The notes below the pieces were generated by a model, which saw nothing but the letters and a program-made list of their open reading frames with translations, ran no database searches and was not told where the DNA came from. Shown here piece after piece: positions 18,824 to 24,104 of a stretch of 40,000 bases of DNA (positions are counted from its first letter, which is position 1; the number at the start of each line of letters is the position of its first letter). Source of the stretch: Abyssogena phaseoliformis symbiont OG214 (GTDB lineage Bacteria > Pseudomonadota > Gammaproteobacteria > PS1 > Pseudothioglobaceae); contig NZ_AP012977.1 in the NCBI RefSeq assembly GCF_016592595.1, positions 1,239,912-1,279,911 on the forward strand, in the 5' to 3' direction. The position numbers and the translations under genes were made by a program.

Positions 18824-19552
18824 AACTACTTTTGCAACCCCAAACGAACTAACCAACAATAATGCACCACCCACCCAGCGCTTAAATAAATCGTCATTCT
18901 CTATAATTCTTTGGTGCAATTTAAGCCCGATAATATGCCCAACTGCAGCTATAGGAATCAAACTCAGAGACAATTGCCAATCAATCATCACGCCAAATGT
19001 CACAAAAGTGCTCATCTTAATACCCACCAAAATAAACCACAATACAAACAAAGTATTACGCAGATATTCCTTCGCCACATGGCGCATATACACAACCACA
19101 ATCAAAGGCGCACCAGTGAGCGAAATACCTGCCACATAGCCACCCAATATGAGTAGTAATTTATCCGCCCACGGTCGATGTGAGGTAATTTTTTGGTTAG
19201 AAATCCAAATAATTGAATAAAAAATCGTGATTGAATACACAAACACAATCATCACCTTATCAGGGAGTGATAGCAACCCAAATACCCCAATCAAAGTCGG
19301 AGGAATAATCCATAAGAGTGATTGCTTGAGGTAACACCAATCCACTTGCTTAATAGACTTAAACAAAGTCAATGAAGAGAAAAACAACAAATGAAGCCCA
19401 ATTATAGGCAACCAATAAACAGGTGATGCGCCCACTAGCAACATCAGCGGCAATCCAAGTGCCGCACCACCAAACCCAAGCCCCGTGCGCACAAACCCTG
19501 CCCACATAAAAATCAGGCCCACTAAAAATAATTCTGTATTAGAAAAGACCAT
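18812..19552 (-). CDS. TauE/SafE (TSUP) family anion/sulfite exporter-like membrane protein
   Basis: 246 aa, about 8 TM segments, with glycine-rich G(L/F)GGAALGLPLM and GGYVAGISLTGAP repeat halves typical of the TSUP family. Confidence 0.75.
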   Translation of the reverse strand: MVFSNTELFLVGLIFMWAGFVRTGLGFGGAALGLPLMLLVGASPVYWLPIIGLHLLFFSSLTLFKSIKQVDWCYLKQSLLWIIPPTLIGVFGLLSLPDKVMIVFVYSITIFYSIIWISNQKITSHRPWADKLLLILGGYVAGISLTGAPLIVVVYMRHVAKEYLRNTLFVLWFILVGIKMSTFVTFGVMIDWQLSLSLIPIAAVGHIIGLKLHQRIIENDDLFKRWVGGALLLVSSFGVAKVVMQF

Positions 19553-19573
19553 ATTCTTAACTATTTACCAACA

Positions 19574-20551
19574 CTACAGCCTATCCAACGGCGACACCAC
19601 CTCTTGTCCGCCTTGGCGTAATACATGCGTATAAATCATCGTTGTTTGTATATCGCTATGCCCTAATAATGCCTGAATGGTGCGAATATCCGTACCTGTT
19701 TGCAATAAATGCGTGGCAAATGAATGCCTAAATGTGTGCGCTGATACTTTTTTATCAATACTTCTACATTTTTTAACCGCCACTTTAATGGCTTTGTTCA
19801 CCGCTGATTGGTCAATATGATGTCTTCTCTCAACACCACTTCTTGGATCAGTTGCAATATTTCTACTAGCAAATACATATTGCCAGCCAAACTCCTTATT
19901 AGCATTCGGATATTTTTTAGCCAAAGCATTCGGTAAATAAACACCGCCATAACCCTCTTTTAGATCCATCAAGTGCCTTTCTTTTCTTTGCAACAAACAG
20001 GCTTTTAATAACGGGATTAATTTATTAGCAAGTGGCGTCACCCTATCCTTTTTACCCTTGCCATCCCGAATAGTTATTTGACAATATTCAAAATCAATAT
20101 CCTGAACCCTCAAGCGCACCAACTCAGAAATTCGCAAACCACCGCCATATAGTAACTGCACCATTAAAATATTTGTGCCACTAAGTTTCGACAACACTTT
20201 TTTTACCTCTTCGATACTTAACACTGCAGGAATGCGTGGTTGTTTCTTGCTACGTACCGCCTGCACATTTTCGAGTGGTTTGCTTAGCACCTTACTGTAG
20301 AGAAAAACCAACGAATTTAACGCCTGATTTTGAGTGCTTGCTGCCACATTTTGCTTTACCGATAAATCCGTTAAAAAATGCTCAACCTTATGTTCAGAAT
20401 TCTCAAACAGTTCCTGTTTGTCCCTCATTTGTGAAAACTTAATAAATCGCTTAACCCAATCGCAATATGTATTTTCTGTTTTATAAGCATAATGCATCCG
20501 CCGCATCAGCTCTCGCATTTTCTGAATGACGAGTTTATTTTCTATTATCAT
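19574..20551 (-). CDS. intI: Integron integrase (IntI family tyrosine recombinase), apparently intact
   Basis: 325 aa. N-terminal YKTENTYCDWVKRFIKF and STQNQALNSLVFLY. Catalytic R (GGLRISELVRLRV), HTFRHSFATHLL and IYTHV. The IntI-specific insertion is present: LPNALAKKYPNANKEFGWQYVFASRNIATDPRSGVERRHHI. C-terminal GGQEVVSPLDRL. Confidence 0.9.
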   Translation of the reverse strand: MIIENKLVIQKMRELMRRMHYAYKTENTYCDWVKRFIKFSQMRDKQELFENSEHKVEHFLTDLSVKQNVAASTQNQALNSLVFLYSKVLSKPLENVQAVRSKKQPRIPAVLSIEEVKKVLSKLSGTNILMVQLLYGGGLRISELVRLRVQDIDFEYCQITIRDGKGKKDRVTPLANKLIPLLKACLLQRKERHLMDLKEGYGGVYLPNALAKKYPNANKEFGWQYVFASRNIATDPRSGVERRHHIDQSAVNKAIKVAVKKCRSIDKKVSAHTFRHSFATHLLQTGTDIRTIQALLGHSDIQTTMIYTHVLRQGGQEVVSPLDRL

Positions 20552-20732
20552 GATAATTAGATTAAATTATGTAATTAATTTTTTTACTTAAATAGCACAT
20601 ATTAAGTAAAAATTTATTTTAGACCAAGAAAGTGGCAAGAATACAACATTTTTTACATAGTATTATTTTTAATAGCGTGTATAAAGGAATATGTCCTTAT
20701 ACTAAATAGTTATGCATTTTCCGTTGTTAGGA
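20552..20732 (+). other. attI region (candidate crossover core GTTAGGA at 20726-20732)
   Basis: Very AT-rich 180-bp spacer between the intI start and the first cassette-like ORF frame. That frame opens directly after the TAG embedded in GTTAGG. A CCCCAA...TTGGGG inverted repeat follows at 20737-20762. The exact site is not provable by eye. Confidence 0.3.
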
Positions 20733-20844
20733 TACACCCCAAAATTCTCAAAAAACTTGGGGGGATATATGGGTCAAAATTAGCAATGGTGAGAATTATA
20801 TTTATCGAATTGCTTTAGAAGCAAGACCATCCATTGGTTTCACA

Positions 20845-21081
20845 ATGAAATCAATGGAAATTGATTACGACTCACATTTAGAATTAAGGCAAAGTGTAGA
20901 GTTCCAGCTAAAATGTGAAAATGGTCTTTATTCGAGTGCATTAAGAGTTCAAAAAGCTGGGTTTTTCGGAAAATTTTTAGCCCATTGGAAGCGCCCTGAT
21001 CCAGATTACAGAGTACCAATGCAATTAGGAATTGTTGGTTTCTTACTTGGTCTTATTCTTGGAATGATTGGTTATGCATAA
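20845..21081 (+). CDS. Cassette ORF: hypothetical 78-aa protein with C-terminal TM anchor
   Basis: ORF ends ...MQLGIVGFLLGLILGMIGYA and its TAA (21079-21081) lies inside the attC inverse core. The frame is open upstream to 20731 without a start codon, so the gene may itself be 5'-truncated. Confidence 0.45.
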   Translation: MKSMEIDYDSHLELRQSVEFQLKCENGLYSSALRVQKAGFFGKFLAHWKRPDPDYRVPMQLGIVGFLLGLILGMIGYA

Positions 21082-21132
21082 CAAATCATTCCAGCCGACC
21101 GCTAACGCGTCGGCTGAATTCAAGCGTTGGCC
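21076..21132 (+). repeat. attC site 1 (best preserved)
   Basis: GCATAAC-AAATCATTC-CAGCCGAC-CGCTAACGC-GTCGGCTG-AATTCAAGC-GTTGGCC. Inverse core RYYYAAC-like and core GTTRRRY-like. The 8-bp perfect inner arms extend to ATT/AAT if one C is left extrahelical. The end sequences resemble the classical aadA 59-be (TAACAATTC...CAAGCCGAC...CTCAAGCGTTAG). Confidence 0.8.
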
Positions 21133-21765
21133 ATTATTGATGATTTAGGTGCAATTGTCATCATAGCTATTTTAATTATGTTGAATTTTTTCGGTGTGTC
21201 GAAAAAAAAGCAGCCTACTTTATTGTTGGTACAATATTATGGATAGGTGTTTTTAAAATCAGGCGTTCACGCTACGTTAGCAGGTGTTGCGTTAGCGTTT
21301 ACAATTCCACTCAATGCAAGGGATGAAAATAAACAACCATTTTCTCCTCTTAAGGAGATAGAACATAGCCTTCATTCTTGGGTTGCTTTTTTTATTCTCC
21401 CGTTCTTTGCTTTTGTAAATACAGGGGTAAATATTACAGAAATATCAATTAGTCAAATGTCTGGAGGCGTGCCACTTGGCATTATGCCAGGTCTTTTTTT
21501 GGGTAAACAACTTGGTGTATTTGGTTTTAGTTTTTTAGCCATCAAATTAAAGTTAGCAAAACTGCCTAAGGGTAGCAACTGGATACAACCATATGGTGTG
21601 TCTGTATTAACTGGCATCGGATTTACTATGAGTTTATTTATAGTTTCTTTGGTATTTGAAGATGATAGTCTTTTTCAATACACGGATAAATTGGCAATAC
21701 TTATTGGTTCATTCGTATCTGGTATAGTTGGGTATCTGATTCTTAAAACAGGAAAAACCACATAA
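21128..21765 (+). pseudogene. nhaA: Na+/H+ antiporter NhaA, 5'-truncated at the attC core, with an internal deletion and frameshifts
   Basis: TTG GCC ATT ATT GAT GAT TTA GGT encodes LAIIDDLG (the NhaA Asp-Asp motif) and starts within the GTTGGCC core. About 20 codons are missing relative to E. coli NhaA after AIVIIA. Frameshifts occur at the A8 run 21202-21209 and near 21255. The C-terminal 170 aa (KSGVHATLAGV...GIGFTMSLF...) are intact to TAA 21763-21765. Confidence 0.8.
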
Positions 21766-21804
21766 CAAAGCATTAAACCACGCCTTACACACCCAAGGTT
21801 AAAG
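21760..21804 (+). repeat. Short attC-like element after the nhaA remnant
   Basis: ACATAAC overlaps the stop codon (TAACAAAG, like the other attC left ends) and the element ends with GTTAAAG. There is no convincing inner palindrome, so it is either degenerate or coincidental. Confidence 0.3.
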
Positions 21805-21856
21805 AATTAAAAATTCCTAACCCCTACCCTCCACCTCACATCTACCATTGTATCTG

Positions 21857-21875
21857 TATAATTCTTGCCAAGAAT
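21857..21875 (+). promoter_or_regulatory. TATAAT box overlapping a 15-bp palindrome upstream of the MNT-HEPN remnant
   Basis: TATAAT at 21857-21862 and ATTCTTG-C-CAAGAAT at 21861-21875, about 45 nt upstream of ATG 21917. This architecture is typical of autoregulated TA promoters. Confidence 0.3.
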
Positions 21876-21916
21876 AACATTAACACCTAACCAATAAACA
21901 CCCTTAACCAAACTAA

Positions 21917-22812
21917 ATGAAAGACTCCCTAAAGCACTTACCTAATAACAAAGCAAATCCACTTAAGGCGAATTCTCCAAGTTATTCGTGAGGAGTTTGA
22001 CTCGGTTGTGGGTACGGCTTCGGGCAAAAGGAAAACGGGTAAGTTGATTAAGGTTATTCTGTTTGGTTCGCATGCTACGGGTAAGTGGGTGAATAAACCA
22101 GAGATTGGTTATATCAGTGATTATGATATTTTGGTGATTGTTAATCAATATGACTTAGTGGCAAAGCTTGATTTGTGGAATACGATTGAGGATAGAGTAA
22201 GAGTCTTTTTGACACCACCTTTTAAACCAGAATGTAACTTGACTGTACATACGCTAGATGAGGTTAATAATTCGCTTAAAGAAGGATAATACTTCTTTAC
22301 TGATACAAAGGGATCAGGGAGTTGTGTTGTATGAGTTTAATAGGAAAGAATTGGCTGTACCGGGGTACTTAACCCAAAAAGCATGCAAGAAAATGGCAAT
22401 AATAGACTATGAAGAGTGGTTTGGTGGCGCTAATGAACTCTTAATTAGTTATAAGGCAAATTTTAAGAGAGGAAGTTACAAACTATCTGCGTTTGAACTC
22501 CACCAAGCTACTGAATACTATTACTATTACTCTTGCTTGTCTTTGGTGCTAACTCAATACAAATCATAATTTACAACAACTTGGCTCAATGGCAGTCCAT
22601 CAAGATGAAGCATTAATGGCTGTCTTCCCACAAGACAGTAAGTTTATAAACACCGTTGTTTTTAACTACTCAAAGAAGCCTATGTTAAAGCACGCTATTC
22701 TAGGCATTATAAAATCACCGAAGAAGAGTTAAACTATTTAAGTGAGAGAGTCGTTCACTTGCAAACTCTAACCAAGCGGCTTTGTGAGGAAAAGATTAAG
22801 TCGTTTGGTTAA
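21917..22812 (+). pseudogene. Minimal nucleotidyltransferase (MNT) plus HEPN domain gene(s), heavily disrupted
   Basis: MKDSLKHLPNNK, then a frameshift to QIHLRRILQVIREEF...KLIKVILFGSHATGKWV...SDYDILVIV (the NTase GS...D.D motif). Next ...HTLDEVNNSLKEG, TAA, YFFTD, a shift, then GVVLYEFNRKEL...AFELHQATEYYY. Further shifts lead to ...LLKEAYVKARYSRHYKITEEELNYLSERVVHLQTLTKRLCEEKIKSFG (HEPN R-x4-6-H region) and the stop at 22810-22812. Confidence 0.7.
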
Positions 22813-23098
22813 AAACCAGCAAGTTTATGACTATTAGATTAATGAAGCAGGCTACTTCTTGCAACACTAAATACCCATAGGTATTCCAGAAAAATTTATG
22901 CCTAAATAGCCTGTTTCTTTCAATATAAAGAGAAAATTCAATTATTAGAAAGCAAAGATTTGGAGAATTTTACAGATGGAGATTTTAAAAAATACAGCAC
23001 TCTTCAAAAACAAAATCCAAACAGAACAAGAGAAAAGTATTAAGCAAAAACTCTCTGAAATTCAGACTATGCTAAAAAGCAAACAGTAAGAATAATTT

Positions 23099-23369
23099 AT
23101 GCCAACTATATCCATGTTTTATGGTGTTCTTATCAGAATATTTTTTCATGATACGGGCAGACACCGCTCGCCACATATTCATGCAGAATATCAAGGAGAA
23201 GTTGGCGTTTATGCGATAAAAGACGGTCAATTGCTTTCAGGTAATTTACCCCCTAAAAAACATAAATTAGTCGTTACTTGGATTGAAATCATTATGATGA
23301 TTTAAAGGCAGATTGGGGCTTGCTGTTAATGGTAAAAAGCCCTTTCCTATTAGAGGACTTGACCAATGA
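23099..23369 (+). pseudogene. DUF4160-family protein with two 1-nt deletions near the 3' end
   Basis: MPTISMFYGVLIRIFFHDTGRHRSPHIHAEYQGE... is a typical DUF4160 N-terminus. After WIEI the expected H.DDLKADWGL and AVNGKKPFPIRGLDQ segments lie in the two other frames (shifts at about 23290 and 23320). The last frame ends at a TGA overlapping the next ATG. Confidence 0.65.
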
Positions 23370-23596
23370 TAATCACTCAAATAGAACCACAAGTAAACCA
23401 CAAGTTACGTATATCTACAAAAGATGGTCGGACAGGTTTATTTGATGTGTTACCCTATTTGAACTCTGAAGCATTTGTAGATCTACAAGATAATGATAAT
23501 TTTATAAAAATCAGAAATGGAAAATATTTTATTGAGTGGGATTGTGGGTCGGACTTATCAGCAGACACAATCGAATCTGAGTGGAAAGTCATCTAA
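23366..23596 (+). CDS. DUF2442-family protein (usual partner of DUF4160)
   Basis: 76 aa, intact (MIITQIEPQVNHKLRISTKDGRTGLFDVLPYL...IEWDCGSDLSADTI). Its TAA sits in the attC inverse core ATCTAAC. Confidence 0.65.
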   Translation: MIITQIEPQVNHKLRISTKDGRTGLFDVLPYLNSEAFVDLQDNDNFIKIRNGKYFIEWDCGSDLSADTIESEWKVI

Positions 23597-23647
23597 CAAA
23601 TCATACCAACCAACTGCTTACGCATCGACTGAATTCAAGCATTAAAT
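23591..23647 (+). repeat. attC site 2 (decayed copy of attC 1)
   Basis: ATCTAAC-AAATCATAC-CAACCAAC-TGCTTACGC-ATCGACTG-AATTCAAGC-ATTAAAT. Colinear with attC 1. Of about 8 differences before the core, 6 are G/C to A/T, and they break the inner stem and the crossover G. Confidence 0.7.
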
Positions 23648-23869
23648 GCAAAAGCTGCACTAGATGCTGTTGGAGCCAAACCACATGATGTCGTCATTGC
23701 GCGTATTTACATGATTAACCTTACACCTAAAAGATTAGAAGAAGTTATACCTTCGTTTTTAGCCACTTTTTAAGGCGCTCAACCTTGTATCACTGGTGTT
23801 AGTATGGAGGTACTTGCTGCACCTGATTTACAAGTTGAGATGGAATTGGTTGTAAAACTTCCAGATTAA
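23642..23869 (+). pseudogene. RidA/YjgF-family protein, C-terminal fragment starting at the attC core, with an in-frame TAA
   Basis: LNAKAALDAVGAKPHDVVIARIYMINL...FLATF-TAA-GAQPCITGVSMEVLAAPDLQVEMELVV aligns with the C-terminal half of E. coli RidA (SLDNVKAIVEAAG...DIVKTTVFV...P.RS.VEVA.LP....IEIE). The N-terminal half is absent. Confidence 0.6.
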
Positions 23870-23914
23870 TCCTCATTAGGTAATTTACTAGTTCGTCGAA
23901 TTCAAGCGTTATAA
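23867..23914 (+). repeat. attC site 3 (right half conserved, left half diverged)
   Basis: ...GTTCGTCGAATTCAAGCGTTATAA shares the GAATTCAAGCGTT right end and a GTTATAA core. The left half (TAATCCTCATTAGGTAATTTAC) no longer pairs with it. Confidence 0.55.
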
Positions 23915-23939
23915 TTTTTAAGAAAAGAAAAATCGTAAA

Positions 23940-24104
23940 ATGAAGCAAATCAACATTCAATATTACAAAACAAAGATTGGCGAATTAATTCTTGACTCTT
24001 ATGATGACAAACTTTGTATTCTTAATTTTAAATACCGAGGAATGAGAACAGCTGTTGATAATAGAATTAAAAACGGATTAAAGGCTAAATTTAGAGAAGA
24101 ATAA
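23940..24104 (+). pseudogene. Methylated-DNA--protein-cysteine methyltransferase (Ogt/MGMT-like), N-terminal fragment only
   Basis: MKQINIQYYKTKIGELILDSYDDKLCILNFKYRGMRTAVDNRIKNGL resembles the N-terminal domain of cassette-borne MGMT-like proteins. The ORF stops after 54 aa and the catalytic PCHR domain is absent. The stop is embedded in TAACAATTCAAG, which looks like a collapsed attC. Confidence 0.5.

Follow-up and report, generated by a model that had tools for sequence, protein, structure and literature searches.

Recombination by integron integrases (IntI) at secondary sites is said to have been described by Francia in 1993 and by Recchia in 1994, and laboratory assays, together with a few resistance cassettes, document recombination of this type well; natural footprints that have become fixed and allow both parents to be reconstructed have been described less often. 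According to Loot et al., cassettes are inserted by IntI1 at genomic attG sites, which have a GWT consensus, and when excision involves nearby genomic sites, pieces of the genome are lost (bioRxiv 10.1101/2022.09.11.507474). The locus analysed here carries two junctions that have in common with attG recombination the G/TT crossover and, clearly so at the second junction, a short, GWT/GTTRRRY-like partner in otherwise ordinary DNA. In contrast to that laboratory work, the events at this locus are natural and fixed, lie inside a sedentary array and truncate the ORFs of other cassettes, and one of the two targets was possibly ATT rather than GWT. Off-target rearrangements made by IntI1 on plasmid R388 likewise have GTT/GTTRRRY-like junctions outside att sites (Souque et al. 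2023, PMC10127599); those, however, were laboratory-selected events that inverted DNA between attI-like sites, and the deletions seen alongside them were not integrase-mediated, whereas the deletions at our locus are anchored on an intact attC. Abnormal cassette boundaries within arrays are also described for fused and truncated class 1 cassettes (PMC4670013), the fused ones arising when the attC of the upstream cassette is lost; here the upstream attC is intact and the 5' half of the downstream ORF is missing. Finally, attC clusters without an integrase, known as CALIN/SALIN elements (PMC4889954), resemble both the attC clusters that lie far from intI in this genome and the array remnants without intI in sister genomes, although the locus itself keeps a complete intI and attI. 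The class of reaction is already known from experiments, and what is new is a natural, fixed pair of junctions with reconstructable parents in a small genome. Sister genomes supply the pre-deletion state of both junctions, pointing to integrase-type deletions within a sedentary chromosomal integron. A literature search that combined integrons with the names of vesicomyid symbionts found no paper containing the word integron.

The locus lies within a stretch of 40,000 nucleotides (hereafter the window) of the complete genome of the Abyssogena phaseoliformis symbiont OG214, which measures 1.54 Mb with 37% GC and belongs to a genus with genomes of 1.0-1.6 Mb. Both the size range and the GC content are like those published for vesicomyid clam symbionts (1.02-1.59 Mb, 31-37% GC; bioRxiv 10.1101/2020.02.01.930370). 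IntI scores 429 bits against the NCBIfam 'integron integrase' model (cut-off 265) over the full profile (positions 1-315), contains the Pfam domains Phage_integrase and SAM_4, and is 94% identical to the IntI encoded at the syntenic site of G004, a genome of the same genus. Starting in the left flank, homology between the window and G004 (92.6%) covers intI and ends at GTTAT (20709-20713), and beyond 20713 the first cassette differs between the two genomes; we therefore placed the attI crossover at this point (Table 1). The predicted attI adjoins intI, with cassette insertion at G/TT, and its TTATGC exactly complements the R'' of attC1 (GCATAAC). When cassette 1 is circularised, its start TTATGC and this R'' (21076-21082) pair at 7 of 7 positions as R''/R'; the 78-aa ORF that it carries has no Pfam or NCBIfam match. 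The window contains an integron-type tyrosine recombinase, attC palindromes and an attI, and the locus is a small sedentary chromosomal integron comprising intI, attI, one intact cassette and then an eroding array. In two sister genomes, G011 and G002 (loci L115 and L116), both the TauE-family gene that occupies positions 18812-19552 of the window and intI are missing; left-flank homology there stops at about window position 18188 and gives way to ~1.2 kb of unmatched sequence in which, judged by eye, there is a possible glyoxalase/VOC-like C-terminal remnant. The integron locus has eroded independently in each lineage.

Table 1. Features of the integron locus, in window coordinates, and distant attC-family sites, in genome coordinates. 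CM, covariance model.
Feature	Position	Strand	Details
intI, intact integron integrase, 325 aa	19574..20551	-	NCBIfam TIGR02249, Pfam
Predicted attI crossover, G/TTATGC	20709..20715	+	cut between 20709 and 20710
Cassette 1, complete, 417 nt	20710..21126	+	78-aa ORF 20845-21081
attC1, R' core GTTGGCC at 21126-21132	21075..21133	+	CM R1 80.8 bits, E 1e-19
nhaA remnant, residues 159 to end	21127..21765	+	91.4% nt identity to G010 orthologue
Eroded left part of nhaA's own attC	21759..21791	+	weak CM match, 11.4 bits, E 2.5
Broken nucleotidyltransferase/HEPN gene	21960..22810	+	Pfam Polbeta/NTP_transf_2 and HEPN on separate ORF pieces
DUF4160/DUF2442 (DhiT-like) two-gene cassette	22845..23641	+	Pfam PF13711 and PF10387
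attC2, core ATTAAAT	23590..23648	+	cut between 23641 and 23642; CM R1 63.8 bits, E 6e-15
RidA-like 3' fragment	23642..23869	+	PF01042, E 1.3e-5, 25.6 bits; one in-frame TAA
attC3, eroded last attC of the array, core GTTATAA at 23908-23914	23863..23915	+	CM 9.8 bits, E 7
Distant attC-family sites, own genome (G000:C1)	721564-722278, 740366-741311, 564056-564113, 1283083-1283142		

In order to identify attC sites we used a covariance model (R1) built on 16 attC of the local family from three sources, G008, G004 and the window. The cells of this alignment were paired in 87.9% of cases, as against 11-37% in slid controls, and two pairs show compensatory changes; the members have the imperfect R''/L''...L'/R' palindrome, the extrahelical base and the AAC...GTT ends of attC sites. 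Significant matches within the window were limited to attC1 and attC2. The first of these matches, at 98% identity, a G008 attC that continues GTTATGTG. The fourth base of R' is A in nearly all members of the family and G at attC1; G occurs in one further case (GTTGAGAC in G004), and two other sites of the family have no GTT core at all. The GCATT core variant of attC2 is also present in five family attC of relatives (four in G008 and one in G011). At the end of the array, attC3 retains an intact right arm (GTCGAATTCAAGCGTT) and a left part that is common to G011 and G002, with a sub-threshold score in the model. Outside the window, six further sites of the family lie far from intI in the same genome (Table 1). 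Two CALIN-like pairs are among these distant sites, and the pair at 740-741 kb encloses a cassette whose R'' and R' complement each other perfectly (GTTAGCCC / GGGCTAAC). The scattered sites are compatible with integrase activity off the platform, and rearrangement of an older array also fits.

Directly beyond the crossover of attC1 the frame from 21127 reads LAIIDDLGAIVIIAI. With its frameshifts read through, this sequence aligned to two stretches of solved NhaA structures, residues 159-183 and residues 187-381, and the first alignment identifies the DD pair of LAIIDDLG as D163/D164. The C-terminal 172-aa ORF matches PF06965 positions 213-374 (E 1e-57), and the nhaA remnant is the one match to PF06965 in the whole genome. 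Whole-genome tblastn with the N-terminal halves of seven homologues returned noise (best E 0.3), and with blastn equally empty, inversion or translocation of the 5' half was ruled out. The truncation is specific to this genome, with the 5' half deleted rather than moved. In these respects the preliminary description of the locus, which had reported an nhaA cut at the G/TT crossover of an attC, with the D163/D164 segment at its start, everything upstream absent and deletion favoured over inversion, was accurate. Its account of later decay was borne out as well by comparison with G010, the relative that carries the only close orthologue: the remnant has lost 60 nt at 21163/21164, where the flanks in G010 are a 10-nt direct repeat, TAGCTATTTT, and has gained two A at 21202-21209, making a run of A8 where G010 has A6, and one T at 21250-21254 (T5 versus T4), the two frameshifts compensating each other. 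The 60-nt loss is a classic slippage deletion between two TAGCTATTTT copies. Limited to residues 159 onward, with a 20-codon gap and two frameshifts, the remnant does not encode a full-length, 12-TM NhaA with D163/D164 (PF06965/TIGR00773) and is a pseudogene of the family rather than a functional member.

Both parents of the attC1-nhaA junction can be read from relatives. In G010 the nhaA sequence is ...ATGATA/TTGGCCATT, family attC in G008, G004 and the window's genome continue ...AAGCGTTA(T/G)G..., and the window has AAGCG/TTGGCC. Parentage switches within the TT of the core, which places the break within the 2 nt common to both parents, that is, at one of 3 positions in a cassette of 417 nt; strand exchange by IntI occurs at the G/TT core (PMC2811028). 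The start that results violates the rule for cassettes, as would be expected of a secondary junction: it complements no R'' downstream, and at the five positions after GTT it shares 0 of 5 with the GTTATGTG that nhaA's own R'' predicts. TTGGCC is not a native cassette start: the R'' of nhaA, ACATAAC, predicts GTTATGT, exactly as in G010, and cassette 1 follows this rule at 7/7. That R'' lies at 21760-21766, in what is left of nhaA's own attC; it overlaps the stop codon and is conserved in G010, and the remnant, sub-threshold in the model by itself, sits where the attC of the cassette is expected. Complementarity of R'' and R', taken together with the fourth base of R', offers a simple test for non-native cassette boundaries.

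A second junction of the same kind is found at attC2. The array content between the two junctions includes the broken nucleotidyltransferase/HEPN gene and the DhiT-like cassette, which scores 63.7 bits against NCBIfam toxin_DhiT (below its cut-off) and for which we propose the start TTAGAT, since this would complement the R'' of attC2, ATCTAAC. Directly after attC2, the translation LNAKAALDAVG... corresponds to PF01042 positions 51-119 of 121, at a score slightly below the Pfam cut-off, which puts the fusion with attC2 at codon ~51 in a RidA-like gene; an intact native ridA is present elsewhere in the genome. At this locus G011 and G002 have the same RidA-like gene and retain its 5' part, and they read TTTCG/TTAAAT at the breakpoint. 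The target, GTTAAAT, agrees with GTTRRRY at 7 of 7 positions, a motif with a frequency of one per 832 positions in the genome, and homology switches inside the GTT, the bases CGTT being common to both parents. The sequence upstream of the breakpoint in G011 and G002 is absent from the genome, except for the common left flank, and this absence indicates a second deletion with its left end at the crossover of an attC. The core of attC2 is now A/TT (GCATT) rather than G/TT, which we assume to reflect a later G-to-A change.

We consider it likely (probability roughly 0.75) that the integron integrase made both junctions by way of secondary sites, either directly or through insertion followed by excision. 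Both junctions fall at the G/TT of an att site, as products of secondary-site recombination do, and both cores and both targets are on the + strand, the direct orientation that deletion needs. Such a junction is present at each of the two intact attC of the window, and the integrase itself is intact. If the left breakpoints were random, their joint occurrence at these positions would have a chance of roughly 3/417 x 5/800, or ~10^-4 to 10^-5, a figure that we estimated from how long the cassettes are and from the number of positions (3 and 5) at which each break may lie. From these junctions we infer that IntI catalysed the deletions. IntI would have paired the attC crossover with a secondary, attG-like site inside each ORF, in direct orientation, and recombination would have removed the 5' half of the ORF along with any cassettes in between. 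This could have happened by a one-step deletion between attC and the secondary site, by a deletion between attI and the secondary site, after which cassette 1 entered attI in the normal way, or by insertion of a cassette at the secondary site followed by ordinary excision between two attC; the three routes yield the same product and are indistinguishable by sequence alone. The later decay of nhaA, through slippage between the 10-nt repeats and two homopolymer indels, was ordinary mutation.

The main weakness of attributing the junctions to the integrase is the nhaA target, which in G010 is ATA/TTGGCC, with A/TT rather than G/TT; set beside GWT/GTTRRRY, the G010 target reads ATTGGCC, and more distant homologues read GCA TTA at the same point. 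For IntI1, a mismatch between the partners at the first nucleotide lowers recombination 10^3- to 10^4-fold (PMC2811028). The G010 copy, from which the target is read, is itself a decaying pseudogene, and the base that this lineage had at the time of the event may have been a different one. In addition, two junctions are a small sample, and many deletions in the lineage are not due to an integrase. The two junctions provide concrete substrates with which to ask how far an IntI outside class 1 depends on the G of GTT. A broader proposal, which we put forward as speculative and rather improbable, is that off-target deletion between attC and secondary sites is recurrent and directional, tolerates a non-GWT, A/TT target in spite of the mismatch at the first nucleotide, and helps to dismantle the eroding array and perhaps neighbouring DNA as well. 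The setting would be one of reduced genomes, probably restricted to hosts, that keep the integrase intact while its array erodes.

The principal alternative is that both deletions were illegitimate, arising from microhomology or replication slippage independently of the integrase, and ended at attC cores by chance. The bases common to the parents at the junctions, TT and CGTT, could act as microhomology, and the locus is prone to deletion, as seen from the many deletions in sister genomes and the slippage deletion within nhaA; the ATT at the nhaA target in G010, a poor site for IntI, also agrees with this explanation. Chance would, however, have had to place two independent left breakpoints within 3-5 indistinguishable crossover positions, at the only two intact attC, and to place one right breakpoint in a perfect GTTRRRY, the 1-in-832 motif. 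Of the ordinary deletions, the single one that nhaA allows us to reconstruct relied on direct repeats of 10 nt and has no connection with an attC. Slippage at a hairpin, moreover, usually removes the hairpin, whereas here the whole hairpin was kept and the sequence downstream was lost. In G008 (C50, locus L028, oriented ~9088) there is an attC with a collapsed central part (TAACAAATCATTCCAGCCGACTTCTACATATCAAGCGTT), the internal hairpin loss that is expected of slippage, contrasting with the intact attC1 and attC2. Slippage after stalling at a hairpin was rejected as the cause of the junctions on the reasoning that it does not predict retention of a whole attC with loss of what lies downstream. 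Weighing these points, we regard integrase-independent deletion as unlikely.

The preliminary description had combined integrase-mediated recombination with the premise that normal cassettes do not carry a housekeeping antiporter, and had placed the secondary site in a chromosomal nhaA resident beside the integron. An integrase event remains the best explanation and has gained a second junction, but the premise is wrong for this lineage. G010, in which a 3' remnant of intI survives, is syntenic with the window on both flanks at ~92% identity, and its orthologous nhaA pseudogene extends upstream of the window's breakpoint. There, an attC (28 bits) ending AAACG/TTATGT is followed by a leader of ~20 nt, an ATG, codons that match residues 13-72 of the NhaA of G026, a gap, and residues 145 to the end; the stop falls within ACATAAC, which complements the cassette start GTTATGT exactly (R''/R' 7/7). 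The ORF is bounded by attC, with a start complementary to its own R'', and the upstream attC together with this complementarity establishes nhaA as a bona fide cassette in the lineage. Alignment with relatives, which the preliminary description had suggested as a check, did reveal coding sequence continuing upstream of the breakpoint, although in an array cassette. The assumption that nhaA cannot be cassette-borne is corrected by this locus.

A resident gene would be in keeping with the lack of any other nhaA in the genome, and with G017 and G020, family-level relatives in which a native nhaA lies ~1-2 kb from an IntI-like gene. Against it stand the position of the G010 nhaA inside the array, with its upstream attC, its complementarity and a downstream attC remnant, and the divergence of the gene itself: identity between the remnant and the intact native NhaA of G004 is only 67%, as compared with 94% for IntI. 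Its best match, at 80%, is in G026, a member of another family, followed by matches of 73-76% in vent-type Mariprofundaceae and Nitrospinota, and the distribution of the best matches over other families and phyla also argues against a resident gene. A search of genome contigs with the NhaA fragment retrieved chromosomal homologues only, from vent-type taxa and at <=76%, none of which looked like the same cassette. No attC-like sequence was present 3' of the nhaA stop in seven relatives (G026, G004, G020, G035, G033, G021 and G017). In G017 and G020 it is the 3' side of the integrase, not the array side, that faces nhaA. The intact native nhaA genes of G020 (C13, locus L031, 5729-9822) and G017 (C18, 21411-23587) converge on the integrase, with two genes in between in G020, and the IntI-like integrases near them are 47-52% identical. 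That a resident housekeeping nhaA was cut is, on this evidence, very improbable.

Least probable of the alternatives, and hardly credible in our view, is that the piece starting with TTGGCC is a native mobile cassette for a truncated protein, or else an artefact of assembly: positions 21127-23641 do formally start with TT and end with an attC, but TTGGCC complements no downstream R'', the nhaA coding sequence of G010 continues upstream of this point, an exact 26-mer scan of metagenome contigs contained 0 other copies of the segment right of the junction, and an independent Logan contig from run SRR12077200 repeats window positions 18247-21850 at 99.97% identity, the 28-mer across the attC1-nhaA junction included. 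Neither of the two outcomes that the preliminary description had named as fatal to its reading, a truncated nhaA borne as a cassette in relatives or a misassembled junction, was observed; nhaA is indeed cassette-borne in relatives, but without a cut at this point. A single event for both junctions, in which a composite unit was excised and reinserted, was set aside, as it takes more steps than two deletions.

Other loci of relatives add some minor observations. A survey of 19 attC of relatives for ORFs open from the boundary yielded no clear further case. In G004 (C1:1288500-1292500, locus L146, 2033-2269), an attC of 84 bits with R' GTTATGTT is followed by a 60-codon ORF, with other large ORFs nearby, and may represent another abnormal attC junction. 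The 60-codon ORF (MFLGKTVDNTVQEKNITFPTDSKLL...) presumably resembles an internal part of an IS5-type transposase. Within the window, positions 22920-22960, upstream of an ORF at 22976-23089, resemble positions 23940-23975 at the start of an ORF at 23940-24104. In G010 these two similar stretches are apparently the endpoints of a deletion, with 23 nt of G010 aligning to both.
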